Of a stretch of DNA of 32,000 nucleotides, positions 1 to 32,000 are shown piece after piece (within the stretch, counting starts at the first letter, position 1; every line of letters begins with the position of its first letter). The stretch comes from Candidatus Peribacter riflensis (GTDB lineage: Bacteria > Patescibacteriota > Gracilibacteria > Peribacterales > Peribacteraceae). The DNA lies in contig CP013062.1 of NCBI GenBank assembly GCA_001430755.1, positions 1 through 32,000 on the forward strand. Reading direction: 5' to 3'. A program made the translations under genes and the position numbers. The notes beneath the pieces are model-generated. The model saw only the letters and a list, made by a program, of their open reading frames with translations, had not been told where the DNA came from and made no database searches.

Positions 1-240
1 TCACGCGGGAGCATTCCACTTGCCCAGCAACGTCTCGTGGAAGCGCGCAATGATCGTTGCCACCCTCTGCAGAATTTTCCTGTCGGGACCCTCTGCCATG
101 TCGGCAATTTTCTCTTTCAGATCGACAGCACTAAAATTCGTGCCTCCACACAGATCACACACTCGTTGGAGGCCTTCGTTGCCCACTTGTGCGGTGAGCT
201 GTGCGATGAGTTCTTCCGATGAAGAGGGGGCTTGCAGCAT
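1..240 (-). CDS. hypothetical small protein (79 aa)
   Basis: Complete ORF (ATG at 240, TGA at 1-3), 52 nt downstream of and co-directional with the HD gene. It has a C-rich CTCCCC leader like other genes here. No family recognised. Confidence 0.4.
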   Translation of the reverse strand: MLQAPSSSEELIAQLTAQVGNEGLQRVCDLCGGTNFSAVDLKEKIADMAEGPDRKILQRVATIIARFHETLLGKWNAPA

Positions 241-292
241 TGCAGGGGAGAAAGGGCAGCATCATACGCATGGGCGCGCAGACTGCAACCGC

Positions 293-886
293 CTACAGCC
301 CGATTTCATGGGCAACGCCTTTCATGGCCTCGAGTGTCAGTCCGATAAAATCGGACAGAGAGATGCCAAGTAATTCCTCGCATTTCCTGATCTGCTCGCG
401 GTTCACCTGCGCCGCGAAGCTCTTCTCTTTAAATTTCTTGAGAACGCTCTTCACCTCCACATCTGCCAGCTTCTTCGACGGTCGCACGAGCGCGACGGCG
501 ATGATGAAGCCCGTGAGCTCATCGGCGCAGTACAGGCACTTGCGCAGCATCGAATCGAGCGGATGCTCGGCTCCGTACTTCTCGGCGTAGTGCGCGCGGA
601 TGTCGGCCAGCAGTTCAGCCGGAGCCTTGATGGGCGCGAGTAATTCCTCAAGTGTCTTGCCGCAGTGTTCCTCTGCATCCTTTGCCAATGTGTCCCAATC
701 CAGGTCATGCAGCATGCCGGCCACCTTCCACGTCTCGCTGTCACCGTCATAGTTCTTTGCCAGCGTCTCCATCACTGCACCCGTGGCAATGAGGTGTGCC
801 TTCGTCTTGTCGGCGTGCGCGGCGAGGAGCCCGTGCGCTTCGGGCAGAAGGTGCCCGTAGGTGGAATGTTGAAGAAGTGTTGTCAT
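293..886 (-). CDS. HD-domain phosphohydrolase (197 aa from ATG 886)
   Basis: H...HDLD motif context (VAGMLHDLDWD) typical of the HD superfamily. The ORF track starts at 964, but that start overlaps the lysK 3' end. ATG at 886 is preceded by CCCTCCC and avoids the overlap. Confidence 0.7.
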   Translation of the reverse strand: MTTLLQHSTYGHLLPEAHGLLAAHADKTKAHLIATGAVMETLAKNYDGDSETWKVAGMLHDLDWDTLAKDAEEHCGKTLEELLAPIKAPAELLADIRAHYAEKYGAEHPLDSMLRKCLYCADELTGFIIAVALVRPSKKLADVEVKSVLKKFKEKSFAAQVNREQIRKCEELLGISLSDFIGLTLEAMKGVAHEIGL

Positions 887-908
887 GGGAGGGCTCATGA
901 ACGTCTTA

Positions 909-943
909 GGAGAGGAAACAAAAGAAATAAAGGAAAGAAAGGA
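909..943 (-). repeat. pyrimidine-rich leader module (copy of 8631-8673)
   Basis: The minus-strand sequence is TCCTTTCTTTCCTTTATTTC/TTTTGTTTCCTCTCC. It matches the rplV-rpsC spacer at 19/20 nt plus 11/11 nt around a 9-nt indel. Confidence 0.8.
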
Positions 944-947
944 TGGC

Positions 948-2549: not shown

Positions 2550-2635
2550 GGCTCAAGGATAGCGCGAATGGGTGCGGGATTGAATGCAATACAGGAGCGT
2601 ATTGGACTCTTGAAACAATGAACGGCGATCGCTCT

Positions 2636-4991: not shown

Positions 4992-5069
4992 GTGCCTACA
5001 GTGTAGAGGGATCTCTCGTACGCTGGCCAATGCGTGGCTCGCGCAGTGGCAAAATCCTTTCTAAAGTGT

Positions 5070-5201: not shown

Positions 5202-5816
5202 ATGCCTTCCGGTCTCATCGCACGCAAAGTCGGCATGTCCAAAGTCTTCCTCGAGAACGGGGAGGCGGTGCCGGTGACATACCTGCGGGTTCCGACGAAC
5301 ATTGTCGTTCGCACGAAAACCAAAGAGAAAGACGGCTACGATGCCGTTGTTCTGGGGATCGATCCCAAGAACTGGAAGTCGCGCAAAGGCAAGGAGCACG
5401 TGCGGTACGCCGTGCAGAAGGAGTGGGCGGTCGAGTCCCTCGATGGACTCAACCCCGGCACACAGGTGACAGTCGAGTCCGTTCCGGCCGAAAGCCAGGT
5501 CACGATCGTCGGTGTTAGTAAAGGAAAGGGATTTCAGGGAGTGGTGAAGCGATACCACTTCACCCGTGGTCCCATGTCGCACGGATCCCACCACCACCGC
5601 GAACCGGGTTCGTCGGGCATGCGTGAGAAGCCGGGTCGCGTGATTAAGGGCAAGCGCTATCCGGGACACATGGGTTTGGATCAACTGACACTCAAGCACC
5701 GCCCCGTGATGGCGTGTGACGCGAAAAGTGGCGTATTTGCAGTCAAAGGGCCGATTCCTGGCCCTTCTGGTGCTGCCGTGTACGTCACGATTGAATCCGT
5801 TCCCGCGAAGAAATGA
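5202..5816 (+). CDS. rplC: 50S ribosomal protein L3
   Basis: The GLIARKVGMSKVF N-terminus and length are typical of uL3. Confidence 0.95.
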   Translation: MPSGLIARKVGMSKVFLENGEAVPVTYLRVPTNIVVRTKTKEKDGYDAVVLGIDPKNWKSRKGKEHVRYAVQKEWAVESLDGLNPGTQVTVESVPAESQVTIVGVSKGKGFQGVVKRYHFTRGPMSHGSHHHREPGSSGMREKPGRVIKGKRYPGHMGLDQLTLKHRPVMACDAKSGVFAVKGPIPGPSGAAVYVTIESVPAKK

Positions 5817-6574
5817 CGATTGATGTCTACACTGCTACCGGCACGAAGAAGGGGACAGCCGAGCTGTCCGCCGCTCTCTTTGGAGCTCCCATCAATACGG
5901 GGCTCATGCACCAGGCGGTCATGCTGCAGCAGGGCAACCGCCGCGCTTCGATTGCAAACTCGTTGACGCGCAGTGAAATCCGCGGTTCGACGCGCAAGCT
6001 CTTTGCCCAGAAGGGAACGGGACGCGCACGCCGCGGTTCCGTGCGCAGCCCCCTGCTCAAAGGAGGCAACAAGGCGTTCGGTCCGCGCAGCGTGGCCAAC
6101 TTCAGCCGCAACATGCCGCACAGCATGCGCCGTGCCGCTCTGCTGTCGAGCCTCTCGTACCAGGCGAAGCGCGGCGTGATTCTGGGGCTTGAGAATTACC
6201 CCGATGCTGTGAAGACGAAAGAGGCCCATGCACTGCTGAAGAAGCTCCCCGTGGCACTCGGCCGCTCCATTCTCTTCGTTCTGCCAGAGAAACACAGTGG
6301 CCTCTCGCTCTCCGTCCGCAATATTCCGCGCGTGAAGACACTCCTCGTGAATTACCTGAATCCCGAAGATATCCTCGCCGCACATCACGTGATCTTCCTC
6401 ACGGAGGCACTCACCAAGGCGGAGCAGATCTTTACGGCCAAAAAGCAGCGCGTCGCAGAAGAGGCTCCCGCGAAAGTGCAGACAGAGAAGAAGGCAGAAA
6501 AGCCCTCTGTGAAGCCAAAAACTGCCAAGAAAGCCCCTGCCAAGAAAGCAGCAAAATCCTCCAAGCAAGCGTAA
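5813..6574 (+). CDS. rplD: 50S ribosomal protein L4 (Lys/Ala-rich C-terminal tail)
   Basis: uL4 core (GTGRARRGS). ATGA overlap with rplC. C-terminal low-complexity extension of about 45 aa. Confidence 0.95.
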   Translation: MTIDVYTATGTKKGTAELSAALFGAPINTGLMHQAVMLQQGNRRASIANSLTRSEIRGSTRKLFAQKGTGRARRGSVRSPLLKGGNKAFGPRSVANFSRNMPHSMRRAALLSSLSYQAKRGVILGLENYPDAVKTKEAHALLKKLPVALGRSILFVLPEKHSGLSLSVRNIPRVKTLLVNYLNPEDILAAHHVIFLTEALTKAEQIFTAKKQRVAEEAPAKVQTEKKAEKPSVKPKTAKKAPAKKAAKSSKQA

Positions 6575-6883
6575 ATGAATTACTCCCGCGTCATCCTCGG
6601 CCCCGTCGTCACAGAGAAAGCAGAGCGCCTGAAGGCCGCCGACAGACATGGGTACACGCTCTGGGTGGACAAGGCGGCAACCAAGATCGATGTGAAGTCC
6701 GCACTCGAACACTTCTATGACGTCGAAGTCGCCTCGATCCGCGTGATGCGCACCCTGAGCAAGAGCCGGTCCTTCGGGGCGGCCTCGCAGCGCATGGTGA
6801 AGCGTCCGGCGCAGAAGAAGATGCTCGTTACGTTGAAGCCCAAGAGCAAGCCCCTCGATCTCGCTACCTTTAAACACTCCTGA
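6575..6883 (+). CDS. rplW: 50S ribosomal protein L23
   Basis: uL23 pattern (PVVTEKA...KKMLVTL) in conserved operon position. Confidence 0.93.
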   Translation: MNYSRVILGPVVTEKAERLKAADRHGYTLWVDKAATKIDVKSALEHFYDVEVASIRVMRTLSKSRSFGAASQRMVKRPAQKKMLVTLKPKSKPLDLATFKHS

Positions 6884-6885
6884 TC

Positions 6886-7737
6886 ATGCCGATCCGCATC
6901 TGTTCACCAACGACTCCCGGACGACGCCAGATGACGATCGCGGATTTCTCTGGCCTCACGAAGAAGCGGCCCGAAAAACGGCTGACCTTTGGCAAGCAGG
7001 CGATCAACGGCCGCAATAACATCGGCCGCATCACGGTCCGGCACCGCGGAGGCGGCCACAAGCGTCTGTACCGTCTCATCGATTTCAAGCGTATCGACAA
7101 GCACGGCGTGCCCGGAACGGTCGCTTCCATCGAGTACGATCCCAACCGCACGGCACGCATCGCGCTCGTGCATTACATTGACGGTGACAAGCGCTACATC
7201 CTCGCTCCAGAAGGGATGGCAATCGGTGCCCAGGTGGTTTGCGCCGAGCGCACGAAGGTGAAGCTGGGCAATTGCATGCAGATGCAGTACATCCCCATGG
7301 GGTACAAGGTGCACAATGTAGAGATGCAGCGCGGCCGCGGCGGGCAGATTGTCCGTTCGGCCGGCTCCTCGGCAACGCTCATCGGCCTGGATGGCGACTA
7401 TGTGCTCGTCCAGCTGCCCTCGACCGAAGTGCGCAAAGTCCGGAAGGAGTGCTACGCCACGGTCGGTACGGTGAGTAACATCGATCACAACCTCATTTCC
7501 ATCGGCAAGGCCGGCCGCAGCCGCTGGCTCGGTCACCGGCCGCAGGTGCTGGGTAAGTCCATGAATGCTGTGGATCACCCGCATGGAGGAGGAGAAGGCC
7601 ACGCTCCGATCGGGCTCAGGAGCGGACCCAAGACGCCGTGGGGCAAGCCGGCCCGTGGTGTGAAGACCCGCCGCAAGAAGAAGGTCACGAACCGATGGAT
7701 CATCCGCCGCCGCATCAAGAAGCCACGCAAGAAGTAA
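6886..7737 (+). CDS. rplB: 50S ribosomal protein L2
   Basis: uL2 motifs ([17 protein letters not shown]). Confidence 0.97.
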
Positions 7738-7747
7738 TTTATCCCCT

Positions 7748-7783
7748 TAACCCTAACCCTAACCCTAACCCTAACCCTAACCC
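7748..7783 (+). repeat. (TAACCC)x6 perfect hexamer array (complement GGGTTA, telomere-type unit)
   Basis: Six perfect tandem copies fill the rplB-rpsS spacer and end 1 nt before the rpsS ATG. Confidence 0.98.
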
Positions 7784-7784
7784 T

Positions 7785-8129
7785 ATGTCCCGCTCCCTCA
7801 GCAAAGGCCCCTACGTCGATCCGCGCCTTCTCAAAAAGGTGATGGCGATGGTGGGCGCCGGCGAAAAGAAGATCATCAAGACGTGGGCCCGGGATTGCGA
7901 TATTCCGCCGGAGTTCGTGGGATTCACGTTCGCGGTGCACAACGGCAAGGAATTCACGCCCGTGTACGTCACGGAGCAGATGGTGGGGCACAAGCTCGGC
8001 GAATTCTCCTGGACGACGAAGTTCAAGATCCACGGCGGCAAGATGCAAGAGGCACAGACCGCCGCCGCTTCTGCCGCCGCCGCACCGGCCCCTGCTGCTC
8101 CCGCAGCCGGTAAACCCGCTTCCAAATAA
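7785..8129 (+). CDS. rpsS: 30S ribosomal protein S19 (Ala/Pro-rich C-terminal tail)
   Basis: The [12 protein letters not shown] start at ATG 7785 matches uS19. The upstream part of the tracked ORF only translates the hexamer repeat. Confidence 0.93.
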
Positions 8130-8132
8130 CCC

Positions 8133-8630
8133 ATGAGAGCCTACCTCCGCTCCGCACGCATCGCGCCCAAGAAACTAAGCGTCATCGCCCAGATGGTCCG
8201 TGGTCTCACAGTGCCCGAGGCGCAGGAATCTCTGGAGCATACGCACAAGAAGGGTGCGCGCATGATTCTCGCCTTGCTGAAGTCCGCTACCGCGAATGCA
8301 GTACACAACGACAAGCAGCGTCCCGAGGATCTCGTGATCCGCACCATCGTGGTGAACCAGGCGCAGAGCTATCGCCGCGGTGTGCCGATGGCGCGCGGAC
8401 GCATGCGCCCCATCCGAAAGTTCTTGAGCCACATCGAGATCGTCTTAGGAGTTGCCGATGCGGAAGGTGAAGGGGAGAAGATTAAAAGGAAAGAAAAAAG
8501 GAAGAGGAACCAAAAGAATGGCGCAAAAACTTCACAGGAGCAGAAAAAAGCTGTACAAGGAGACGCTCCTTCAAAAAAGAAGACGACAAAGCATGCTGCC
8601 TCCGATTCCAACACCTCAAAAAGCGTGTAA
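8133..8630 (+). CDS. rplV: 50S ribosomal protein L22 (about 55-aa basic C-terminal tail)
   Basis: uL22 core followed by the tail EGEGEKIKRKEKRKRNQKNG... Confidence 0.93.
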   Translation: MRAYLRSARIAPKKLSVIAQMVRGLTVPEAQESLEHTHKKGARMILALLKSATANAVHNDKQRPEDLVIRTIVVNQAQSYRRGVPMARGRMRPIRKFLSHIEIVLGVADAEGEGEKIKRKEKRKRNQKNGAKTSQEQKKAVQGDAPSKKKTTKHAASDSNTSKSV

Positions 8631-8673
8631 TCCTTTCATTCCTTTATTTCCCTTCATTCTTTTGTTTCCTTCC
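8631..8673 (+). repeat. pyrimidine-rich leader module (copy of 909-943 minus)
   Basis: TCCTTTCATTCCTTTATTTC[CCTTCATTC]TTTTGTTTCCTTCC, directly upstream of rpsC. Confidence 0.8.
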
Positions 8674-8678
8674 ATTGC

Positions 8679-9344
8679 ATGGGTCAAAAAGTGAACGCCA
8701 ATGGCTTTCGGATCGGTCTCACGCACTCGTGGCCGAGCAAGTGGTATGCCCGCGGCAAGAAATTCCGCGATGGATTTCTGCAGGATGTGCAGATCCGCCG
8801 CTCGATCATGAAGAAGATGAAAGATGCCGGCATTGCCTTGATCGAGATCGATCGCGGCAAGAAGACCTCCGTCGTCATCCACAGTAGCAAGCCCGGCGTG
8901 ATCATCGGCAAGCAGGGCGCGGCCATCGAGGAACTGCGCAAGCAGCTCGAGAGAGAGTGGGGAGGATCCTTCGAGGTGAACATTCAGGAGATCCGCAATC
9001 CCGATGCCAGTGCCGCTGTCATCGCCGAAACGATTCAGGGCCAGATCGAGCGACGCATGCCCTACCGTCGCGCTGTGAAAATGGCGTTGGAGAAGGCGAT
9101 TACCGCCGGAGCCATCGGAATCAAAGTCACGATTTCGGGCCGCCTGAACGGCGCAGAGATCGCGCGTGCAGAGCTGCATAAGCAGGGGAATATCCCGCTG
9201 CAGACGCTCCGCGCGAATGTTGAGTTCGCCGTGCGGCACGCGGTGACCACGTACGGAACGATCGGTGTGCAGGTGTGGGTGTACCACGGTCTCGTCTTCA
9301 AGAAGGTGCAGCAAATCCATTCCGCATCTCTCCACTCTTCTTAA
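8679..9344 (+). CDS. rpsC: 30S ribosomal protein S3
   Basis: The MGQKVNANGFRIG N-terminus and KH domain pattern match uS3. Confidence 0.96.
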   Translation: MGQKVNANGFRIGLTHSWPSKWYARGKKFRDGFLQDVQIRRSIMKKMKDAGIALIEIDRGKKTSVVIHSSKPGVIIGKQGAAIEELRKQLEREWGGSFEVNIQEIRNPDASAAVIAETIQGQIERRMPYRRAVKMALEKAITAGAIGIKVTISGRLNGAEIARAELHKQGNIPLQTLRANVEFAVRHAVTTYGTIGVQVWVYHGLVFKKVQQIHSASLHSS

Positions 9345-9350
9345 GCCCCC

Positions 9351-9773
9351 ATGCTCGAACCCAAGAAAATCAAACGGCGCAAGCAACACCGCTACCGCGG
9401 AGCATTCGGTGGGAAGGCGACGCGTGGCACATTGCTCTCATTCGGCACCGTGGGGCTCAAGGCCCAGACCGGCGGCGAGCTGACAGCCCGTCAGATCGAG
9501 GCCGCGCGCCGCGCACTCACGCACAGCGTGCAGCGCGGAGGCAAAATCTGGATCCGCGTCTTTCCGCACACACCGGTCTCGCGCAAAGCTGCCGAAGTGC
9601 CGATGGGCTCGGGCAAAGGTTCACTGGAATTCTACGCAACCATTGTGCATCCGGGCACCATGATCTTTGAGATGGGTGGCCTGGAGGAAGCCGTGGCTGT
9701 GGCCGCTCTGCGTCTCGCAGCCTACAAGCTTCCGATTCGGACCAAGATTGTCACTGCTGCTTTCTTCCGCTAA
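9351..9773 (+). CDS. rplP: 50S ribosomal protein L16
   Basis: uL16 pattern (MLEPKKIKRRKQHRYR...). Confidence 0.96.
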   Translation: MLEPKKIKRRKQHRYRGAFGGKATRGTLLSFGTVGLKAQTGGELTARQIEAARRALTHSVQRGGKIWIRVFPHTPVSRKAAEVPMGSGKGSLEFYATIVHPGTMIFEMGGLEEAVAVAALRLAAYKLPIRTKIVTAAFFR

Positions 9774-9776
9774 ATC

Positions 9777-10097
9777 ATGACGAAGACCACGACTGCCGGC
9801 GAGCTCCGCGCGATGCAACTCCCTGATCTCTCGCGAGAGATCAAGGCACAGGTGCTGCTCATCGAGCAGTTGCGCCTCGGCGTGCAACTGAAGAAGGAGA
9901 AAGACACGGCCAAGCTCCGCCGGGAGCGCCGACAGCTTGCGCGCATGAAAACGGAGTGGGCAAGAAAGACCACAGCTCAATTGCAGGGCGTCACAAAGCC
10001 CAGTACAGTTCCCACCTCCGCCAAGGCTTCCGCCTCCGCCCTTCGGGCTACGGCGGACAAGACGGCGGACAGGTCCGCCTCCCAAGCACGCTCATGA
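9777..10097 (+). CDS. rpmC: 50S ribosomal protein L29 (about 40-aa C-terminal tail)
   Basis: uL29 core (ELRAMQLPDLSREI...LR) followed by an Ala/Ser/Thr-rich tail. Stop overlaps the rpsQ start (ATGA). Confidence 0.88.
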   Translation: MTKTTTAGELRAMQLPDLSREIKAQVLLIEQLRLGVQLKKEKDTAKLRRERRQLARMKTEWARKTTAQLQGVTKPSTVPTSAKASASALRATADKTADRSASQARS

Positions 10098-10459
10098 GAA
10101 CGAAAAAAGGTCACATCTCCTCGGCCAAGATGACCGGCACCGTTACGGTGACCGTCCATCGTTCGATCTTCCACCCGCTCTACCAGAAGCGTTTCATGCG
10201 GAGTAAGAAATTCCTGGCGGACATGGGGGAATTCAAAGATCTGGTCGTGGGCGATACCGTGGTCATCACGGAGTGCCGGCCCTTAAGCAAGCGCAAGTGT
10301 TTCCGCGTGACGGAGGTACTCGAGCGCGTGCCGCGTGTGAGCGAACTCAAAGAGGAGGAGGTAATCGAAAAGACCATTCACCGTGAGAAGAAGCATACGG
10401 TTCACGAGAAGAAATCCTCCTCTGTTTCCTCTGCCTCCTCTGCTTCTTCAAAAAAATGA
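10094..10459 (+). CDS. rpsQ: 30S ribosomal protein S17 (C-terminal tail)
   Basis: Internal ATG at 10094 gives [21 protein letters not shown]..., the typical uS17 start. Confidence 0.9.
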
Positions 10460-10824
10460 TCCAGCAGCAATCCATCCTCATGGTGGCGGATAACACGGGG
10501 GCGAAGTCGGCCATGTGCATCAAGGTGCTCGGATCGAGCAAGCGCCGCTATGCGCACATCGGTGACATCATCGTTGTGGCGATCAAGGAGGCGGCCCCGC
10601 GCGGCACGGTCCGCAAGAAGGCTGTCGAACGCGCCGTCATCGTCCGTACGCGGGATTTCATCCGCCGTCCCGATGGTGGGGGAGTGCGCTTCGACGACAA
10701 TGCCTGCGTGATCATTGCCAGTGACGGCCAGCCCAAGGGCACCCGCGTCTTCGGTCCGGTGGCCCGGGAACTGCGCGGTCGCGGCTACAAGAAGATCGTT
10801 TCACTTGCTCCTGACGTTCTATGA
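10456..10824 (+). CDS. rplN: 50S ribosomal protein L14
   Basis: [17 protein letters not shown] is the canonical uL14 N-terminus. Confidence 0.97.
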
Positions 10825-11363
10825 GAATCCATACGGGCGATTCCGTCCTCGTCATCTCCGGCAAAGACAAAGGCAAGACCGGTACGGTCCTGCGCGTTCT
10901 CGACGACCGTCTGGTCGTGAGTGACGTGAACATGCGTACGCGCCATGTCCGCAAGACCGCACAGGGTCCCGGCCAGAGGCTCCGCTACGAGGCGAGCATT
11001 GCCGCGAGCAATGTCATGATCCTCGATCCCAAAACGAAGAAGCCCACGCGTATCGGTGTCCGCACGGACGAGAAAGGCCGCAAGGTGCGCATCGCCAAGG
11101 TCAGCGGTGAGGCGATCGTGGCCGGCAAGGTCACGCCGAAGAAGGGTCCCAAGGCCGCGCCCCTGAAAACGAAAGAGCAGGCGGAGAAGGCTCCGGAGGG
11201 TGAAAAAGTGGCCGGTCCGCAGCGCAAGCCTTTCTGGAAGCGTCTGAGTTTCGGAGCGGAGGCGGTGCAGGAAGGGGAGGAGCCGAAGGGTCAGGTGACC
11301 GACCACAGCGTTCCCGAGCCCACGCGCATTCCCGAATCATTCAGTCACTCACGTGGTTCCTAA
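10821..11363 (+). CDS. rplX: 50S ribosomal protein L24 (about 75-aa C-terminal tail)
   Basis: KOW motif ([16 protein letters not shown]) followed by a long low-complexity tail. Confidence 0.92.
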
Positions 11364-11369
11364 CGACCC

Positions 11370-11951
11370 ATGAAGAAGTATGAATCTCTCCATGATCGGC
11401 TGCGAGGTCCCATCGCCGAAGCCCTGAAGAAGGAGCTGAAGGTCACGAACATCCATGCTTTGCCGCGCATCGAGAAAGTCACAGTGAACGTGGGGATCAA
11501 TCGTTCCAAGATGGATAGCAAAGAGTCCCATGAGTACGTGGCGCAGTGCCTGTCTAAGATCACAGGCCAGAAGGCGGTGCTCACCCATTCGCGCAAAGCG
11601 ATCTCGAACTTCAAGATCCGCGAGGGGCTCGTGGTTGGCGCCGTCGTCACGCTCCACGGGCGGCGGATGGAGGAATTCCTCGACCGGTTCCTGAGCTATA
11701 TTCTGCCGCGCATCCGCGATTTCCGCGGTGTGACGCCGAAGCTGGATGGCCATGGCAACTATGCCATCGGGCTCAAAGATCACTCCATCTTCCCCGAAGT
11801 GCCGGCGCCCGAGGCTAACAAGATCTTCGGTGTGCAGGTGCAGATCACCACGAATGCCAAGGCCGATGAACCTGCGTTCGCGCTCCTGAAGCATATGGGA
11901 GTGCCGTTCCGCCTGGCTCGTGCGGCGAAAACTTCCTCTTCCAAGTCCTAA
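11370..11951 (+). CDS. rplE: 50S ribosomal protein L5
   Basis: uL5 pattern in conserved operon position. Confidence 0.95.
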
Positions 11952-11956
11952 ACCCC

Positions 11957-12181: not shown

Positions 12182-12184
12182 AAC

Positions 12185-12574: not shown

Positions 12575-12595
12575 CCCTTACCCTTTTACCTTCCC

Positions 12596-19098: not shown

Positions 19099-19099
19099 T

Positions 19100-19983: not shown

Positions 19984-20123
19984 AATGTGCTTATATAACA
20001 TTTTGTATGTTTATCAACACAAATTTCCATCTTCTCGTGAAAATGGCATCCAATTCCTTGCTGGCGCAGAAACGGCTCTGTAGGATGCCTCGGCTTTCGT
20101 TCGTGTATTTTTTCTTGCGCTCT

Positions 20124-20393
20124 GTGTCCAAGCAGGATGTGATTGAACTCGTCGGCGTGGTGGAAGAAACTTTTCCCAACGCCATGTTCCGAGTCCGAAT
20201 CACGAGTGACCAAGCCAAAAACCACGAACTCCTTTGCCACCTCGCTGGGCGCATGCGGGTGCATCGCGTCCGCATCCTTCCCGGTGATCGGGTGAAAGTG
20301 GAAATGACGCCCTACGATCTCAAGAAAGGTCGCATCGTCTACCGCTTCTCTCCGGATCGTCCCCCTGTTGCTCAGGAGGAACCTGCCCGGTGA
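20124..20393 (+). CDS. infA: translation initiation factor IF-1 (short C-terminal tail)
   Basis: GTG at 20124 gives (M)[23 protein letters not shown], aligning with canonical IF-1 N-termini. An in-frame ATG at 20085 is an alternative start. Confidence 0.85.
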
Positions 20394-20414
20394 AGATTCC
20401 CTCATCTCTCTCCC

Positions 20415-20546
20415 ATGAAAGTTCGTGCTTCCGCCAAGCCCATCTGCAAGGATTGTCGCCTGGTCATCCGCCGGAGCGGAAAAGGCAAAATGGTGCGCCG
20501 CATCGTCTGCCGCAAGAATCCGAAGCACAAACAGCGTCAAGGCTAA
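20415..20546 (+). CDS. rpmJ: 50S ribosomal protein L36
   Basis: Not in the ORF track (43 aa). Hand translation: [43 protein letters not shown], stop TAA at 20544-20546. Confidence 0.93.
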
Positions 20547-20561
20547 CGTCTCCCCCCTTCT

Positions 20562-20942
20562 ATGATCCGCGTTTCTGGAGTTGTCCTTCCCGGCAATAAG
20601 CACATCGTCATTGCCCTGACGCACATCAAGGGCATCGGGCGACCGCTGGCGTCGAAGATTCTGGCGGAACTCCGCATCCCCCTCGAAAAGAAAGCCGATG
20701 CTCTCTCCGAAGAGGAGCAGGCCCGCATCCGTTCCCGCGTCGAGCGCGAGACCGTGGAGGGCGAACTCACGCGCAAGATATCGATGGATGTCAAACGTCT
20801 GCAGGATATCGGCACGTGGCGCGGCTACCGTCACCGCAAGAAGCTCCCCGTGCGCGGACAGACCTCGCGCCGCAATGCCCGCACGAAGCGTGGCAAGAAG
20901 AAGACGGGTCTCTCTGGTCGCGTGACGCTCACCAAGACGTAA
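20562..20942 (+). CDS. rpsM: 30S ribosomal protein S13
   Basis: MIRVSGVVLPGNKHIVIALTHIKGIG matches uS13. Confidence 0.96.
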   Translation: MIRVSGVVLPGNKHIVIALTHIKGIGRPLASKILAELRIPLEKKADALSEEEQARIRSRVERETVEGELTRKISMDVKRLQDIGTWRGYRHRKKLPVRGQTSRRNARTKRGKKKTGLSGRVTLTKT

Positions 20943-20959
20943 ACCCCCCTCACTCTGCT

Positions 20960-21487
20960 ATGGCTGATTTGACCCCCCAGACACCGGCTTCCCCCTCCGC
21001 CAAGGCTACGGCGGACAAGTCCGACTCTGCCCCGAAGAAGGCCGAGACGCTCACCGAGAAGCTCGAAGCTTCTGCGGCATCCGCCGAGGGCGCCGATGCC
21101 AAGGCCGGCCCCAAGGTCCGCCGCAAGAAGATCAAGAAGTCCGTGCCGCAGGCGCGCGTCTGTATTCATGCCGGCGAGAACAACACGATCGTGACGTTCA
21201 CGGATTTGCAGGGCAACAAGCTCGGTGGTTGCAGCGCCGGCATGGCCGGTTTCAAGGGCACCCGCAAGTCCACGCCCTACGCGGCGAAAGTGGCGGCCGA
21301 GAAGGCTTCGGAGCTGGTGCAGGGCTACGGCATTCAGTCCGTGACCGTGGAGGTGAAGGGGCTCGGACCCGGACGGGAGCAGTCCATTCGCGGGCTGCAG
21401 AGCGCGGGCCTCAATCTGGATGCCATCGTCGATACGACGCCGATTCCCCACGGCGGGGTGCGCCAGCCCGGACGGCGGCGCGTGTAA
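20960..21487 (+). CDS. rpsK: 30S ribosomal protein S11 (about 45-aa N-terminal extension)
   Basis: uS11 core (ARVCIHAGENNTIVTFTD...TPIPHGG) after an Ala/Ser/Lys-rich extension starting at ATG 20960. Confidence 0.92.
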   Translation: MADLTPQTPASPSAKATADKSDSAPKKAETLTEKLEASAASAEGADAKAGPKVRRKKIKKSVPQARVCIHAGENNTIVTFTDLQGNKLGGCSAGMAGFKGTRKSTPYAAKVAAEKASELVQGYGIQSVTVEVKGLGPGREQSIRGLQSAGLNLDAIVDTTPIPHGGVRQPGRRRV

Positions 21488-21517
21488 TCCCTTCGATTCT
21501 CTCCTCACTTTTTCCTC

Positions 21518-22135
21518 ATGAAGTACACAGGTCCAAAGGCGAAACGATGCCGTCGGCAGGGCTCCAACATCTACGGGGCCGACAAGTATGACAAAATTCT
21601 GCAGCGCAAGCCCTACGGTCCCGGTAAGGGGCCGAAGACGCGCCCGACGCGCCCCTCGGAGTACGCCAAGCAGCTGAAAGAGAAGCAGAAGGCCCGCGAT
21701 ATGTACGGTCTCTCGGAGCGGCAATTCCGCATTCTCTACGCCGAGGCGACCAAGAAGGCGGGGCAGACGGGCGAGACCTTCAAGCAGCTTCTGGAGCGCC
21801 GTCTCGACAACGTCATCTACCGTGCGGGGCTCGCTCTCACGCGCATGCAGGCACGGCAGTTCGTGAGCCATGGGCACTTTCTCATCGACGGAGTGCGCGT
21901 GTCGGTTCCCTCGTACCGCGTGCAACCGGGGGAGGTCATCATCATGCGGGAGCGGAACAAGCGCTCGCCAGTCTACGGACCGATCATCGATGCGCACGAG
22001 AAGTACATGCCGCCCAAGTGGCTGAAGGTGGATCATGGCGCAATGAAAGTCGAGGTCGTCGCCCTTCCTGCGCCCGACGATGCCGAACAGGCCATTGATG
22101 TCCGTCAGGTCGTGGAATTCTACTCTCGTACGTAG
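21518..22135 (+). CDS. rpsD: 30S ribosomal protein S4
   Basis: MKYTGPKAKRCRRQG N-terminus and S4 domain. Confidence 0.96.
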   Translation: MKYTGPKAKRCRRQGSNIYGADKYDKILQRKPYGPGKGPKTRPTRPSEYAKQLKEKQKARDMYGLSERQFRILYAEATKKAGQTGETFKQLLERRLDNVIYRAGLALTRMQARQFVSHGHFLIDGVRVSVPSYRVQPGEVIIMRERNKRSPVYGPIIDAHEKYMPPKWLKVDHGAMKVEVVALPAPDDAEQAIDVRQVVEFYSRT

Positions 22136-22193
22136 TCCGTTTTCTCTCTCGTCCCGCACTGTGCGGGCCACCCATTTCCTTCCTCTCTGTCCC

Positions 22194-23189
22194 ATGCACA
22201 TCATTCAGGAAGAGATTGGTCTCCCCACCTTCAGCGTCACGCCCGTGACGAAAGGGGATGCCACCCACGCCGTCTTCGTGATCGGGCCCCTGCCGCCGGG
22301 GTACGGGATGACTTTGGGCAACGCGCTCCGACGTGCGCTCTTGAGCAGCCTCCCGGGTGCCGCTGTTCTCTCGATGCGCGTCCATGGCGCGCAGCACGAA
22401 TACGCGACGGTCAAAGGGGTACAAGAGACGATTCTGGATATCGGGCTCAACTTAAAGCGCCTCAAGATGCGCAAGCACGGCAAGGATCTGGAGGTCATCA
22501 CACTCCAGGCGAAGGGTCCCAAGGTGGTCACCGCCGAAGATCTGAAGGTCTCTTCGGATATCGAAGTCCTGAACAAGGATCTGCCCATCCTCACTGTCGA
22601 GAAAGGCGGAGCGATCGACATGCAGATCACCGTGGGCAAAGGTGTGGGATACGCGCCGGCTTCCGAACGCAACAAGAAGCAGAACGAGCCGGGGCTCATC
22701 CACATCGATGCCATTTTCAGCCCGGTCGAGAAGGTCCGGTTCACCGTAGAGACGGCCCGCGTGGGTCAGCGTACGGACTTAGAGAAGCTCGTCGTGGATG
22801 TGCAGACGAATGGCTCCCTTTCGGCGGAGGAGGCGGTACAGTTCGCTTCGCAGCTCCTCAAGAGTTACTTCGAATACTTCGGCTCGACCGAGAAGGTGGT
22901 GGAGCCCGAGTTCATCGCCGATTTCTCGCGCGCAGGACCGCAAGTCGGCGAGACGGGCATGGATCTGTCGGTGAAAGAGAGCTACACGCCGATCGAGATT
23001 CTCAATTTCTCGCCGCGCACGCTCAATGCCCTCATTAATGCGGGCGTGGGCTCCATCGAACAACTCACCAAGTGCACGGAAGCGGCTCTCAGTAACTTCC
23101 GCGGATTCGGCGCCAAGGCCCTCGAAGAAGTGAAACAGACCCTGGCCGAGCGCGGGCTCAAACTCTCTGAGGAATCCTTGGACAGCTGA
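22194..23189 (+). CDS. rpoA: DNA-directed RNA polymerase subunit alpha
   Basis: ATG at 22194. The N-terminal dimerisation domain and the C-terminal HhH domain (LNFSPRTLNALINAGV) are both present. Confidence 0.95.
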   Translation: MHIIQEEIGLPTFSVTPVTKGDATHAVFVIGPLPPGYGMTLGNALRRALLSSLPGAAVLSMRVHGAQHEYATVKGVQETILDIGLNLKRLKMRKHGKDLEVITLQAKGPKVVTAEDLKVSSDIEVLNKDLPILTVEKGGAIDMQITVGKGVGYAPASERNKKQNEPGLIHIDAIFSPVEKVRFTVETARVGQRTDLEKLVVDVQTNGSLSAEEAVQFASQLLKSYFEYFGSTEKVVEPEFIADFSRAGPQVGETGMDLSVKESYTPIEILNFSPRTLNALINAGVGSIEQLTKCTEAALSNFRGFGAKALEEVKQTLAERGLKLSEESLDS

Positions 23190-23226
23190 GCCGTTTTTCC
23201 TCTACGCTGCGCACCTCTTTTCCTCC

Positions 23227-23643
23227 ATGCGACATCGTCTCTCTCGTCACCGGCTCGCCCTGAAACCCGCCCACGCGCGGATGTTCAAGCGCAACCTGCT
23301 CACGTCGCTGCTGCTCTACGAATCCGTGCGTACGACCAAGAAGCGCGCGCAGGTGGTGGCCCCGATGGTGGATCATCTGATCGCCGTGGCCAAGTCTTCC
23401 GCTCCGTACAATGCCATTCGTGCGATCAACCGCGTCGTGACGGATAAGAACGCCAGCCGCAAGATCATGGAAGTCTACGTGAAGCGCTTTGCCTCCGTGC
23501 CCTCCGGCTTCACGCGCATGGTGCCTGTGGGTGCCCGCATCGGCGACGGTGCGCCTCTCGTGGATCTGATGTTTGTGGAAGGCATTGCGGTGACCGTTGA
23601 ACCCAAAGCAGCCAAGGTCAAGAAGTCCCCCTCGAAGAAATGA
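23227..23643 (+). CDS. rplQ: 50S ribosomal protein L17
   Basis: MRHRLSRHRLALKPAHARMF matches bL17. Confidence 0.95.
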   Translation: MRHRLSRHRLALKPAHARMFKRNLLTSLLLYESVRTTKKRAQVVAPMVDHLIAVAKSSAPYNAIRAINRVVTDKNASRKIMEVYVKRFASVPSGFTRMVPVGARIGDGAPLVDLMFVEGIAVTVEPKAAKVKKSPSKK

Positions 23644-24065
23644 AGACCTCCACGCCCAAAGCACCGGCTCCACGCTGGCTCCTCATCGATGCGGAGGGCC
23701 AGGTGCTCGGCCGTCTCGCCGCGCGCGTGGCGCTCATGCTGCGCGGCAAGAATAAGGCGCTGTTTTCGCCTCATCAGTTGTGCGGGGATCACGTCGTCGT
23801 CGTGAATGCCGCCAAGCTCACCATGACGCCCGCCAAATTCCGCCGCAAGACGTACTTTACGCACACGGGGTATCTGGGGCATCTGAAGGCGATTCCCCTC
23901 CAGAGAATGTTTGAAGAGCGTCCGGTCGAGCTCATCGAGCAATCCGTGCACGGCATGCTCCCCCGCAACCGTCTGCGCCCGCAAGCGCTCAAGCGCCTGC
24001 ATGTGTTTGCGGGTGCCGATCACACCTTCGAGGCGCAGAAGCCTGTTCTCACTCCCCTCCGGTAA
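23640..24065 (+). CDS. rplM: 50S ribosomal protein L13
   Basis: WLLIDAEGQVLGRLA pattern. ATGA overlap with rplQ. Confidence 0.95.
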   Translation: MKTSTPKAPAPRWLLIDAEGQVLGRLAARVALMLRGKNKALFSPHQLCGDHVVVVNAAKLTMTPAKFRRKTYFTHTGYLGHLKAIPLQRMFEERPVELIEQSVHGMLPRNRLRPQALKRLHVFAGADHTFEAQKPVLTPLR

Positions 24066-24068
24066 TCT

Positions 24069-24479
24069 ATGCAACCCACAGAGAAGAAACGGCAGTACCT
24101 GAGCGGCGTCGGCAAGCGCAAGACCGCCATTGCCCGCGTGAAGGTTTTTGAGGGCGGGTCCGGCGAGGCGATCGTGAACGGTCTCAAGATCAGAGAGTAC
24201 TTCGATACGGCATTCCAGACAGAGAACGCTCTGTCGCCCCTCGTCCTCGCGAACCTCAAAGGGCGCATCGATGTCGAGGCGATCACGCGTGGCGGAGGCA
24301 AGGAAGCACAGTCCGATGCCGTGCGGCACGGCCTGAGCCGCGCTCTCTTGCTCGTCAGCCCCGAATTGCGCGGTGACCTCAAGCGTGCCGGCTACCTGCG
24401 CCGCGATGCACGCATCAAGGAGCGCAAGAAGCCGGGCCTCAAGCGCGCCCGCCGTGCGCCGCAGTGGCAGAAACGATAG
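24069..24479 (+). CDS. rpsI: 30S ribosomal protein S9
   Basis: GVGKRKTAIARV and the C-terminal RRAPQWQKR. The stop TAG (24477-24479) lies inside the hairpin element. Confidence 0.95.
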   Translation: MQPTEKKRQYLSGVGKRKTAIARVKVFEGGSGEAIVNGLKIREYFDTAFQTENALSPLVLANLKGRIDVEAITRGGGKEAQSDAVRHGLSRALLLVSPELRGDLKRAGYLRRDARIKERKKPGLKRARRAPQWQKR

Positions 24480-26411: not shown

Positions 26412-26444
26412 CGTGTACACTCGCCTACAATTTCCCCCCTTTTC

Positions 26445-28011: not shown

Positions 28012-28026
28012 AGGGGGAGGATAGCA

Positions 28027-28800: not shown

Positions 28801-28822
28801 GGTACTCTGCTATCATTTCTCC

Positions 28823-30196: not shown

Positions 30197-30213
30197 GCTC
30201 CCCAAGGGGGAGC
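30197..30213 (+). promoter_or_regulatory. small GC hairpin after the AEC gene
   Basis: GCTCCCC-AAG-GGGGAGC (7-bp stem, 3-nt loop), 7 nt after the stop. There is no U tract, so it is not a classical intrinsic terminator. Confidence 0.35.
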
Positions 30214-30233
30214 CCTGCTGCTACCATGACCGC

Positions 30234-30881
30234 ATGGCTCTGTCCGTGCTCATCGCACCATCGATCCTCTCGGCAGACAGGGAGCGTCTTCAGGAGGAGA
30301 TCAAGAGTATTGAGCCGTACGCCGACTGGCTGCAGATCGATGTGATGGACGGGCACTTCGTCCCGAATGTCACTTTTCCGTTCGAGGTGGTGCAGATGAT
30401 CCGCACCTCGCTCCCGCTCGACATCCATCTCATGGTGGAAGATCCGGCTTCCTACGCGCAAAAGTTTTTGCAGTTGCAACCGAAGAACATCACGTTCCAT
30501 GCCGAGGCAGTGCAGGCGACGGATGACAGGCGAGCCCTGATGCAAGCCATTCGTAAGGGCGGTGCTCTGGCCGGAATCGCGATCAATCCTCCGACATCTC
30601 TGGGTGCCATCGCCGATGTGCTGGGCGAAGTGGATCTGCTACTCGTCATGTCGGTGAACCCGGGCTTCGGCGGACAGGCGTTCATCCCGTCTGTCCTCGA
30701 AAAAGTGGAAGAGGCGCGCCGGCGGTTTCCTCAGCTCATGATCCAGATGGATGGTGGCATCGATGAGCGTACAGCCCCGCAGTGCATCCGTGCCGGCGCC
30801 AACAATCTGGTGGCCGGGAGCTTCATCTTCCGCGCTTCAGACCGCGCAAAAGCTATTACTTCTCTCCGCACCGCACTATGA
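30234..30881 (+). CDS. rpe: ribulose-phosphate 3-epimerase
   Basis: IAPSILSAD...DVMDGHFVPN motifs. Confidence 0.95.
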   Translation: MALSVLIAPSILSADRERLQEEIKSIEPYADWLQIDVMDGHFVPNVTFPFEVVQMIRTSLPLDIHLMVEDPASYAQKFLQLQPKNITFHAEAVQATDDRRALMQAIRKGGALAGIAINPPTSLGAIADVLGEVDLLLVMSVNPGFGGQAFIPSVLEKVEEARRRFPQLMIQMDGGIDERTAPQCIRAGANNLVAGSFIFRASDRAKAITSLRTAL

Positions 30882-31363
30882 GCACACGCTCTGCTTCCCT
30901 CGTATTTTTCTGCCTTTTTGCCCTGGCCGGATGCAGCGCCACGATCACTCCGCCGGAGGAGGGAGCGGGGACTGTTCGCCTTGTCGGTCCGGCCGATGTT
31001 AGCGTGCCGGTGGCCGTTGAATTCGCACGCACGCCTGAGGAACACCAGCGGGGCCTGCAGGGCCGTACGTCGCTCGTCTACGGCAATGGCATGCTCTTCC
31101 TCTTCGAGGATAGCGCCGTGCGTTCGTTCTGGATGAAAGACACGCTGCTTCCCCTGGATATTGCCTTCTTCGATGCAGAGGGGCGGTTCGTTTCGCAGGC
31201 ATCCATGGTCCCGTGTCCTCCGGAAGAGGGGGCGGCCTGCCCGTCGACGCTCTCCACCGGTCCCGCACAGTTCGCTCTCGAGGTGCCTGCAGGCTTTCTG
31301 AAGGCTGCCGGAGTGGAGGAGGGCTGGAACCTGGTGCTCGGGCCGTGGGCCGCATCTGAGTAA
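30878..31363 (+). CDS. DUF192-domain lipoprotein
   Basis: Lipobox LAGC after ATG 30878 (ATGA overlap with rpe). DUF192 pattern (RGLQGR...GMLFLF....FWMKDTLLPLDIAFFD). Confidence 0.85.
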   Translation: MSTRSASLVFFCLFALAGCSATITPPEEGAGTVRLVGPADVSVPVAVEFARTPEEHQRGLQGRTSLVYGNGMLFLFEDSAVRSFWMKDTLLPLDIAFFDAEGRFVSQASMVPCPPEEGAACPSTLSTGPAQFALEVPAGFLKAAGVEEGWNLVLGPWAASE

Positions 31364-31366
31364 CCC

Positions 31367-32000
31367 ATGCATGCTGATGCATCTTCGTCCGCAGGCCTGC
31401 GCAGAGTGATTGAAATCGTGCTGGCCGTGATGACGGCTGCGGCGGCGCTCCAGGTGTTTTTGGCACTCCAGCATGCACCCCTGGTCTTTGACGAGGTCTT
31501 CCACTTTGAGCGCATCGAGGGGCTTCTGCGCGGCACCATGCGGCTTCAGGATTGGGGCGTGATGCTGCCGGGGTACCACCTATTCATTGCAGGAATGCTT
31601 CGCCTGAGCGGGTTTGCGTCCGTTCCCGCGGCACGCTTCGTGACGTTCCTCGTGAGCGTGGCCTGCTGCGCCGCCGCTTTTTCGGTGGCCTTCTCACTCG
31701 ACCGGAAATCCGCCCTCCTGCGCACGCTGCAGGTGGCCACCCTGCCCATTCTGCTGCCGTTCTTCCCACTGCTCTACACCGACACGCTGTCGCTCTGCAT
31801 CCTCCTCTTCGCCACCTTCGCCGCACTCAGGGGATGGGCCCTGCTCTCGGGTGTGCTGCTGCTCGCGGCCGTGGGTGTGCGCCAGAACAACGTGCTCTGG
31901 GTGCCGCTCCTCTTTGCTATTGTGCTCGGACGCGAGACGACATGGCAGATCGTTCCGACGGAACTTTCTGAATGGCTGCACGAGTCGGCAGCACGACTGC
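31367..32000 (+). CDS. polytopic membrane glycosyltransferase, ALG10/DIE2-like (GT-C), 5' partial at window end
   Basis: Not in the ORF track because it runs off the window. Hand translation from ATG 31367 is open to 32000 (211 codons). Motifs are collinear with ALG10: FDEVFHF, W..MLPGYHL, RFVTFLVSV, LLYTD, VRQNNVLW. Confidence 0.7.
   Translation, partial: MHADASSSAGLRRVIEIVLAVMTAAAALQVFLALQHAPLVFDEVFHFERIEGLLRGTMRLQDWGVMLPGYHLFIAGMLRLSGFASVPAARFVTFLVSVACCAAAFSVAFSLDRKSALLRTLQVATLPILLPFFPLLYTDTLSLCILLFATFAALRGWALLSGVLLLAAVGVRQNNVLWVPLLFAIVLGRETTWQIVPTELSEWLHESAARL

Follow-up and report, generated by a model that had tools for sequence, protein, structure and literature searches.

G-poor, pyrimidine-rich start regions and probable Shine-Dalgarno-independent initiation in Candidatus Peribacter riflensis

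Background

How are start codons recognised in a bacterium whose genes are preceded by almost nothing that resembles a Shine-Dalgarno (SD) sequence? The question is raised by positions 1 to 32,000 of contig CP013062.1 (assembly GCA_001430755.1) of Candidatus Peribacter riflensis, a stretch hereafter called the window. Its G+C content is 59%, and it carries an S10-spc-alpha ribosomal-protein array that lacks rpmD, with housekeeping genes after it. The organism belongs to the Peregrinibacteria, within the Candidate Phyla Radiation (CPR), and was assembled from Rifle aquifer metagenomes (PMC4736985); its genome measures 1,248,181 bp, and the SecY and uS3 encoded in the window show full identity to proteins of the species (ALM09425.1 and others). 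An original prediction, made from the letters of the window, held that the starts lie in C-rich, G-depleted leaders with CCC or CCUCC-like tracts, and that either initiation is SD-independent or the 3' end of the 16S rRNA is altered. The canonical anti-SD core at that 3' end is itself CCUCC, so that such leaders would resemble the anti-SD instead of complementing it. Work on the choice of starts without SD sequences has been confined almost entirely to systems rich in A and U (Bacteroidia, cyanobacteria and plastids).

Sequences and start codons analysed

With two overlapping contigs, identical to the window base for base over 12.5 and 11.8 kb, the region analysed grew to about 50 kb, with 65 genes. 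The gene list consisted of existing gene calls, tested by open reading frame (ORF) integrity and by homology to relatives; start tallies were made on the 48 starts within the window, with 370 internal ATGs as background. ATG is the called start in 62 of the 65 genes, and homology to relatives recovers all 30 of the 30 starts of the ribosomal-protein array. Some calls were nevertheless wrong or missing: rplO begins at ATG 16264 and not at 16273 (its N-terminus, MLH.L[RK]P, is conserved in the two close relatives, L068 and L069), infA probably begins at GTG 20124 ((M)SKQD..., as in both relatives) rather than at ATG 20043 (window 20043-20135), rpmJ (20415-20546) was missed by the gene finder behind the list, and the gene calls of the relatives include several wrong starts. 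Over the entire coding strand G and C are balanced (0.297 and 0.302).

A compositional signal before start codons

In the 20 nucleotides (nt) before the starts, G amounts to 12.7%, against 31% before the internal ATGs (Mann-Whitney p~1e-18), with minima of 2-8% at -16 to -9 and at -2 and -1. Pyrimidines reach 74% at -16 to -9, compared with 50% before internal ATGs, and the region from -40 to -21 is nearly at background composition (G 23%). At positions -3 to -1 we counted 77 C and 13 G among 144 (75 and 14 once the rplO start is corrected), close to the 79 and 14 of 147 first reported. Eleven of the twelve starts said to be abutted by CCC were found so, namely rplV, rplP, rplE, rpsN, rplF, rplR, secY, rpmJ, rpoA, the 24963 ORF and an ALG10-type glycosyltransferase gene, while the twelfth, the gene with a weak HD domain, qualifies only if ATG 886 is chosen over 898. 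Likewise, CCTCC, CTCCC, CCCTC or TCCTC, first counted at 18 genes or more, occurs within 24 nt upstream of 21 of the 48 starts, against 6.4 expected from the internal ATGs (p=2e-7).

C richness and G depletion thus exceed the background in the window, but the CCUCC-like motif does not stand as a specific one: all pyrimidine pentamers are enriched, 3-12 fold, with none dominant, and their start positions peak at -18 to -13 and again beside the ATG. C makes up 38.6% of positions -20 to -1, and spreading the missing G proportionally over the other bases predicts 37.5%; the leaders are therefore as rich in C as the background would be without its G, with an additional shift from A (20.8% observed, 25.7% expected) to U (T 27.9% observed, 24.1% expected). 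Individual leaders reach 50% C, with U contributing as much as C, and position -1 is a pyrimidine in 80% of starts (C 55%, U 25%). A weight matrix built on the 25 nt upstream of the relatives' starts separates 47 ATG starts of the window from 1,024 other ATGs with an area under the curve (AUC) of 0.90, and a plain count of G in 20 nt does so with an AUC of 0.91. The signal is one of composition: G is avoided and pyrimidines are favoured over a zone that starts near -20 and runs to codon 8.

Absence of SD pairing and a variant 16S rRNA tail

Between -20 and -4, GGAG and GAGG precede none of the 48 starts (3.6 and 1.8 expected) and AGGA precedes one; most starts have no GGAGG-like purine-rich motif 5-13 nt upstream. 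Alternative in-frame starts with SD-like motifs exist in 10 genes, but all of them would truncate or oddly extend conserved N-termini. As first noted, the sole SD-like element of the window lies before rplO (AAGGGAAG). Its GGAAG, 4 nt before the corrected start, could pair without mismatch with CUUCC, the variant anti-SD core described below. At the same place L068 has AGGAAA, and L069 has no such motif and instead a TTGACC-17-TACAAT promoter 8 nt before the ATG. The rplO element may be a residual SD, a regulatory SD or a product of chance. The CCCT and AGGG that flank it could form a small hairpin.

The 16S tail of the species has been published. Amin et al. 2018 (S4 Table, PMC6107228) list Ca. 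P. riflensis GCA_001430885.1 as lacking an anti-SD, with the tail GAACACTTCCTTA against the canonical GATCACCTCCTTA; with the Tompa method they detected no SD in it, and the top upstream motif, TACACT (Z 20.5), is not complementary to the tail (PMC6107228). A 2024 survey (PMC10783764) repeats the tail GAACACTTCCTTA for GCA_001430885.1 in its S4 Table and in its Table 4 classes the species as "SD-scarce, lacking a conserved CCUCC" and puts the genes capable of pairing at 7%. Using the pattern GTCGTAACAAGGTA-N18-26-GAACAYTYCCTT on one genome per GTDB species, we collected 60 loci, nearly all labelled as Peribacteria or Peregrinibacteria, with the tails GAACACTTCCTT (40 loci), GAACATTTCCTT (17 loci) and GAACATTCCCTT (3 loci, low-G+C Peregrinibacteria). 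The form GAACA[C/T]TTCCTT is found in 57 Peribacteria-type 16S genes, among them that of CG1_02_54_53 (L068), whose leaders were also read, and in four of four loci tested the tail match forms the final 48 nt of a complete hit to bacterial small-subunit (SSU) rRNA. Since the same tail stands at the SSU 3' end in 57 relatives, the CUUCC core is a trait of the class and not a sequencing error. For the window's own genome the tail is taken from the two published tables and these 57 relatives: a search with Rfam found nothing in the 10 kb left of the window (L002/L003) and gave only a tRNA-Thr in the window, and the published gene table of the genome has no rRNA rows. The core has thus changed from CCUCC to CUUCC, and the two possibilities that the original prediction offered as alternatives, SD-independent initiation and an altered 16S tail, are both supported.

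The leaders do not complement the variant tail either. At -20 to -4, GGAAG precedes one start of 48 (that of rplO), GAAGG and AAGGA none, all at or below expectation; neither TAAGGAAGTGTTC, the complement of the variant tail, nor a part of it is enriched at SD spacing, and full anti-tail matches are at chance level. Two candidates of this kind, at chance level and arising from Glu-Glu-Val codons, were rejected: the tail-complementary motif AGGAAGTG, which occurs three times and inside lysS only, and a 10-nt match to the tail upstream of a TTG that could serve the HD gene as another start. When a complete Peribacteria 16S with 40 nt of trailer was considered, no hexamer was complementary to the leaders above composition-preserving shuffles, the best having 8 complementary leaders out of 65 where the 95th percentile of shuffle maxima is 8.

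Directly after the tail, a trailer is conserved as ACCAGGGAA in 54 of the 60 loci, as ACCAGAGGAA in three and as ATAGGGG or GTAGGGG in three (those with the tail ...TTCCCTT), and the sequence beyond it varies. The trailer can form a hairpin with the tail (-3.7 to -6.5 kcal/mol). The tail substitutions GAUCA to GAACA and CCUCC to CUUCC are complementary to one another, and with them the fold-back GGAA/UUCC stem stacked on helix 45 grows from 3 to 4 bp.

Evidence of selection and conservation in relatives

Only G can pair with C and with U alike. By thermodynamic prediction, the mean minimum free energy of 40-nt windows is -3.9 kcal/mol at starts and -9.0 kcal/mol at internal ATGs (p=2e-18), the trough spans -30 to +30, and the unpaired probability is 0.55 at starts against 0.39 at internal ATGs. 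The depletion continues into the genes, third-codon-position G being 17.5% in codons 2-8 against 34-37% later, and it is graded by gene class: at -20 to -1 the array of translation genes has 10.3% G, the other genes have 18.8% (p=0.0009), and a strain-variable island has 31%. Where a leader lies within the gene before it, G is just as low (14.6%) as in intergenic leaders. In the two close relatives (SecY 89% and 76% identical; 56% and 61% G+C), leader sequences are unrelated to those of the window, but composition is retained, with 13.5-13.8% G and 37-40% C. Taken together, the structure trough, codons 2-8, the grading by gene class, the embedded leaders and the relatives indicate, at the level of sequence, that G depletion is selected and concerns initiation.

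For a wider comparison, 80 distant loci (SecY 37-48% identical) were drawn from metagenomes by SecY alignment, with starts anchored by homology. Nine have classical SD sites (G 42-47% at -14 to -8), and 32 have essentially no SD and A/U-rich leaders (A 40-57%, C about 12%), even at 50-55% G+C. By contrast, the Peribacteraceae have 42-57% C at -16 to -6 and 8-32% A at -16 to -1. On this comparison of leaders, G avoidance is common to many SD-less CPR lineages and the pyrimidine flavour is specific to the Peribacteraceae. In the 32 A/U-rich SD-less loci (L072, L073, L115 and 29 others; SecY 39-45% identical), T stands at -1 in 69% of 314 starts (...AT-ATG), against 49% pyrimidine at -1 in SD-using loci; this T might be a sign that codon-anticodon pairing reaches as far as nucleotide 37 of the initiator tRNA. 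A tRNA-Met was looked for in 65 Peribacteria loci and none was found.

Promoter boxes close to start codons

Six of the 65 genes (lysS, DJ-1, tpiA, rpiB, rpe and that for SAICAR synthase) have TAnnnT, often as TGnTAnnnT, ending exactly at -7, where about 0.3 would be expected. The position of the box suggests that these promoter-proximal genes are transcribed as leaderless mRNAs, in which case the C-rich bases before their ATG are probably promoter discriminator DNA and not leader. In the 24963 ORF and the UPF0259 gene, also first genes, a conserved -10 box is followed by a G-poor leader of about 17-22 nt. Such -10-like boxes near the ATG fit the TACACT motif of Amin et al. 2018. Neither TACACT nor TGNTAYANT is enriched over the window as a whole, and significance is reached only in the test of box position relative to starts.

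How initiation may work

We consider it probable that initiation in Ca. P. riflensis is independent of SD pairing and takes place on unstructured G-poor leaders, with S1 and translational coupling probably helping and with leaderless first genes; the original prediction of SD-independent initiation agrees with this and with the published 7% of SD genes (PMC10783764). SD pairing, with a tail that reads CUUCC, would have been abandoned for almost all genes, and starts would be marked by a zone of about 40-45 nt, reaching from roughly -20 to codon 8, that is largely free of G and biased towards pyrimidines. Excluding G would keep the landing site clear of stable secondary structure despite the 59% G+C of the genome. 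The stop and start codons of neighbouring operon genes mostly overlap or are separated by no more than 50 nt (23 of 49 same-strand junctions are below 20 nt, with many ATGA overlaps), and 30S subunits or terminating ribosomes could load there onto the single-stranded C/U-rich stretch. S1 is a plausible helper, bS1 being encoded and, by analogy, expected to bind pyrimidine single strands, and the AUG would then be chosen by accessibility and codon-anticodon pairing. Promoter-proximal genes would often be leaderless or have leaders of about 17-25 nt.

Several points weigh against this reading. About 50 kb of a 1.25-Mb genome and two close relatives were covered, and the window is dominated by a single highly expressed gene array. 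Leader lengths, leaderless status and start choices are deduced from sequence, and the binding of S1 to the leaders is a supposition. The variant core CUUCC pairs perfectly with GGAAG, and with GGAGG through one G-U wobble; this ability, together with a tail nearly invariant over 57 species, leaves room for a residual function of the tail, for example at rplO. The shuffle controls keep composition, so that broad, non-specific C:G pairing with rRNA is compatible with them. Lastly, avoidance of structure alone does not explain why the Peribacteraceae prefer pyrimidines over A, their SD-less CPR relatives being A/U-rich.

This last point, which structure avoidance alone would not predict, also speaks for a positive recruitment between RNAs, in which the C/U tracts pair with exposed G-rich segments of 16S rRNA, or, should the mature rRNA extend past the annotated 16S end, with the conserved AGGGAA just beyond that end. 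C-rich sites and a proposed 16S pairing were reported by Barendt et al. 2012 (PMC3310771), the pyrimidine peak at -18 to -9 occupies the usual place of an SD, and ACCAGGGAA is conserved after the tail in 54 of 60 loci while the sequence downstream varies. We nonetheless hold such recruitment to be unlikely: no 16S hexamer, trailer included, exceeds the shuffles, and AGGGAA does not rank with the best sites; none of the pyrimidine k-mers stands out, and starts are told apart by a mere count of G as well as by a matrix of positions. The trailer, moreover, makes better sense as the strand that closes a small hairpin with the tail, as in the pre-rRNA of other bacteria. We judge as very improbable another view, that the leaders are a neutral by-product of drift after SD loss, their C richness coming from genome composition, Ser/Pro tails and slippage repeats with no selection on initiation. 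That C is at background frequency once G is removed, that six of eight tandem repeats lie in leaders and that many leaders overlap upstream coding sequence would all be accommodated by it; but drift would bring G back to about 30%, whereas the depletion is local (-40 to -21 being near background), graded with expected expression, extended to synonymous sites of codons 2-8, equal in intergenic and coding-embedded leaders, retained in relatives despite the turnover of leader sequence, and strong enough to predict starts with an AUC of 0.9.

A co-evolved SD, in which the CUUCC tail would pair with GGAAG-type sites, draws on rplO, where AAGGGAAG lies 4 nt before the corrected start and L068 has AGGAAA at the same place, and on the strong conservation of the tail over the class. 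For the bulk of the genes it is refuted by the counts of GGAAG (1/48), GAAGG (0/48) and AAGGA (0/48), Amin et al. found no tail-complementary motif (PMC6107228), and in L069 rplO has no motif and a promoter 8 nt before its ATG, which together make this explanation highly improbable. It is hardly credible, finally, that the starts are mis-called and that the true ones have ordinary SD sequences. Wrong calls do exist (rplO at 16264 and not 16273, infA probably at GTG 20124, rpmJ uncalled, starts in the relatives), yet homology supports 30 of 30 array starts with conserved N-termini, the alternative starts preceded by SD-like motifs would truncate conserved proteins, and the corrected starts are also G-poor, rplO excepted. 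Beyond SD-independent initiation on G-poor leaders as such, we tentatively raise, as a possibility that we would not favour, that the Peribacteraceae use a positive pyrimidine-tract start signal, in which a C/U tract at about -18 to -6 would be captured by S1 or G-rich rRNA and the pyrimidine at -1 would extend the helix to nucleotide 37 of the initiator tRNA.

Leaders, repeats and gene neighbourhood

The coordinates of the leaders, promoter boxes and the rplO element are given in Table 1.

Table 1. Leaders, candidate promoter boxes and the SD-like element (window positions unless a locus is named)
Feature	Position	Strand	Remarks
Array from rplC to rpsI with secY, adk, map, infA, rpoA	5202-24479	+	31 starts, strongest leaders; G 10.3% and pyrimidines 69% at -20 to -1; all ATG as called
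rpsS leader	7738-7784	+	47 nt, 0 G; (TAACCC)6.3 = CCCTAA repeats (7748-7785) abutting ATG
rpsC leader	8631-8678	+	(TCCTTTCAT)n repeat (8631-8676); 2 G in 48 nt
rplN leader, within rpsQ 3' end	10418-10455	+	(TCCTCTGCT)n repeat (10418-10446) encoding a Ser-rich tail
rplF leader	12575-12595	+	CCCTTACCCTTTTACCTTCCC; 0 G
rpsE leader	13514-13546	+	TTTCTACCCCCTATTCCTCCTCCTCACCCAAGA; 1 G
rplO element	16252-16266	+	AAGGGAAG (16252-16259), CGAT, ATG 16264; sole such element in window
adk leader	18487-18537	+	(CCTACCTTA)5 repeat (18487-18533); 1 G in 51 nt
map upstream region	19164-19230	+	(CAACCTAA)7 repeat (19164-19218); -10-like TATACT (19217-19222) ending 9 nt before ATG
rpmJ leader	20394-20414	+	AGATTCCCTCATCTCTCTCCC
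rpsM leader	20547-20561	+	CGTCTCCCCCCTTCT
rpsK leader	20943-20959	+	ACCCCCCTCACTCTGCT
rpsD leader	21488-21517	+	TCCCTTCGATTCTCTCCTCACTTTTTCCTC; 1 G
rpoA leader	22136-22193	+	last 24 nt CCCATTTCCTTCCTCTCTGTCCC, pyrimidine-rich; top score in relatives-trained model
rplQ leader	23190-23226	+	3' end CACCTCTTTTCCTCC
Leader of gene with weak HD domain (293-898)	899-947	-	T/C-rich (TTGTTTCCT)n repeat (913-943); 4 G in 49 nt
lysS (class I) box	2556-2561	-	TATCCT; last T at -7 from ATG 2549; probable leaderless
ZIP transporter gene box	5000-5005	-	TACACT; last T at -9 from ATG 4991; top motif of Amin et al. 2018
DJ-1/PfpI gene box	14283-14288	+	TATACT; last T at -7 from ATG 14295; probable leaderless
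UPF0259 gene box and leader	26416-26444	+	TACACT, conserved in L068, then G-poor leader of about 17-22 nt, CGCCTACAATTTCCCCCCTTTTC
tpiA box	28018-28023	-	TATCCT with TGC before it; last T at -7 from ATG 28011; probable leaderless mRNA promoter
rpiB box	28811-28816	+	TATCAT (TGCTATCAT); last T at -7 from ATG 28823; probable leaderless
rpe box	30222-30227	+	TACCAT (TGCTACCAT); last T at -7 from ATG 30234; probable leaderless
SAICAR synthase gene box	L005 13742-13747	-	TAnnnT; ends 7 nt before ATG

Among the eight tandem repeats of the window, six are short and G-poor (periods 6, 8 and 9) and lie directly upstream of the rpsS, rpsC, rplN, adk, map and HD starts. Slippage may be how these repeat leaders arise and vary. 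The unit before rpsS, CCCTAA, is that of the vertebrate telomere C-strand. In the relative L069 different repeats, (GCAATAC)n, are found upstream of rpsS, rpsN and rplF. Where a leader lies inside the upstream gene, its constraint shows as a Ser/Pro/Ala-rich C-terminal tail of the upstream protein. The 3' ends of rplD, rpsS, rpsC, rpsQ, rplX and rplE (window 6400-13160) encode Ser/Pro/Ala/Lys-rich tails. The codons of each tail double as the pyrimidine-rich leader for the gene that follows, and the C-terminal extensions described in ribosomal proteins of the CPR may be shaped by this constraint on leaders.

The absence of uL30 is a known CPR trait. The usual place of its gene, rpmD, between rpsE and rplO (window 14165-16263), is taken by the DJ-1/PfpI gene and by a gene on the opposite strand for a secreted protein with CAP and SLH domains. 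Upstream of rplC, rpsJ is absent and a diverging ZIP transporter gene is found instead. Between secY and adk, 527 nt (window 18011-18537) have no called gene and a lower G+C content, and their 3' end is the (CCTACCTTA)n repeat. A box, TGTAGGAT, lies about 30-35 nt upstream of infA GTG 20124 and is conserved in the window, L068 and L069.

About 1.8-9 kb to the left of window position 1 is the strain-variable island (L002 14300-21600), which is absent or different in L003. It holds small hypothetical genes and a Ser/Thr kinase gene, with leaders at background G (31%), and one textbook SD (GAAAGGAGGTGAGAACC-ATG, before a 41-aa ORF), which suggests a recent import from an SD-using source. Within it, 1.5 kb (L002 15050-16613) has no called gene and no Rfam match.

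Among the 60 loci with a 16S 3' end (L008-L067), tRNA genes were found in none, and the four loci searched with Rfam had no 23S downstream of the 16S; judging from these sequences, the 16S gene appears to be unlinked from tRNA-Ile/Ala and 23S in this class. Contigs with Peribacteria-type 16S tails also occur in metagenome-assembled genomes labelled Kiritimatiellales (L034), Fimbriimonadaceae (L050) and Gracilibacteria (L040); these contigs are probably mis-binned.

Comparison with known systems

In the literature searched on SD, anti-SD and leaderless initiation in Peribacteria, Peregrinibacteria, Patescibacteria and the CPR, no description of C/U-rich leaders was found. The loss of SD sequences and the change of the anti-SD had already been published, so that what the search leaves as new is the G-poor, C/U-rich signature, its reach into the coding region, its conservation in the Peribacteraceae and its contrast with A/U-rich relatives. 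A G+C-rich lineage that deletes G rather than raising A and U separates "unstructured" from "A-rich", two properties confounded elsewhere. The G count in 20 nt (AUC 0.9) should be useful for gene calling in CPR metagenomes, several automatic calls having been wrong in the window and in relatives, and with more than 100 SecY clusters and 57 variant-tail 16S genes the order of SD loss, anti-SD mutation, bS21 loss and leader change can be reconstructed phylogenetically. Peribacter leaders are also natural test sequences for the use of C-rich sites by ribosomes in vitro. Interest would be high if the pyrimidine tract were a positive recruitment signal: it would then be a third bacterial start-site code beside the SD and the A-rich or leaderless ones, and the Peribacteraceae would be the natural counterpart of the C-rich sites selected by E. 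coli ribosomes in vitro.

Bacteroidia and Flavobacteriia are similar in that their genomes have almost no SD sequences, and their starts are preceded by G-depleted sequence and surrounded by weak structure. Bacteroidia leaders, as Baez et al. reportedly described in 2019, are A-rich, with A at -3, -6 and -12 to -15, whereas those of the Peribacteraceae have 8-32% A and 42-57% C instead. In both groups a single gene or a few genes keep an SD-like element, rpsU in Flavobacteriia and Bacteroidia and possibly rplO in Peribacter. In E. coli, bS21 is needed for exposure of the anti-SD. The Flavobacteriia tail without CCUCC (GAACATCTCATTT) shares the GAUCA-to-GAACA change with Peribacter (Amin et al. 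2018 S4 Table, PMC6107228). The Bacteroidia 16S tail is reported to be present but sequestered by bS21, bS18 and bS6 (PMC9976891, PMC13000453), whereas in P. riflensis the core itself is mutated. Peregrinibacteria often lack bS21 (PMC9297842). The P. riflensis gene table annotates bS6 and bS18, and bS21 is represented by a weak candidate of 72 aa.

To our knowledge, organisms with a structure trough at their starts build it from A/U-rich sequence. A local absence of mRNA structure permits SD-less initiation in the model of Scharff et al. 2011 (PMC3121790), and the folding-energy trough at SD-less starts that it describes is also seen in Peribacter. The Peribacter trough is unlike the A/U-rich ones in that G is removed and C kept, at 59% G+C, in essentially all genes and together with a mutated anti-SD.

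Actinobacteria and Deinococcus are known for leaderless initiation in which a -10 box lies immediately before the start codon. Peribacter resembles these systems in having TAnnnT at -7 in at least six genes, ATG as near-exclusive start and TACACT as top motif, and TAnACT-type upstream motifs appear in Table 3 of Amin et al. 2018 (PMC6107228). The putative leaderless class of Peribacter is however confined to promoter-proximal genes; operon-internal genes, which make up most of the window, cannot be leaderless and carry C/U-rich spacers.

Protein S1 binds pyrimidine-rich regions upstream of start sites (PMC3296737), and the S1-dependent enhancers of E. coli are pyrimidine- or U-rich single-stranded sites upstream of starts (Boni et al. 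1991, as summarised in PMC3296737). A bS1 gene of 486 aa is annotated in the genome (PMC4736985 supplement). The E. coli enhancers assist an SD and lie upstream of it, whereas the Peribacter tract occupies the position of the SD, with no SD present.

The leaders also bear some likeness in composition to the C-rich, G-poor non-SD sites that Barendt et al. 2012 (PMC3310771) obtained by in vitro selection, using E. coli ribosomes and reconstituted translation. The natural parallels cited there are phages, plants, a microsporidian and vertebrates, with no bacterial genome, and a broad-specificity pairing to G-rich 16S segments was proposed (PMC3310771), for which the hexamer test gives no specific support in Peribacter leaders. 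Both kinds of site are G-poor over the 18 nt before the AUG, with no dominant motif and with a Kozak-like CC before the AUG; in C content, where the selected sites often have at least 9 C in 18, the Peribacter leaders come near to them, with 38.6% C at -20 to -1. The selected sites are artificial, inefficient in living E. coli, in many cases at least 50% C and without positional preference, whereas the leaders of Peribacter are natural and family-wide, with about 40% C and much U, and peak at -18 to -9 and -3 to -1.

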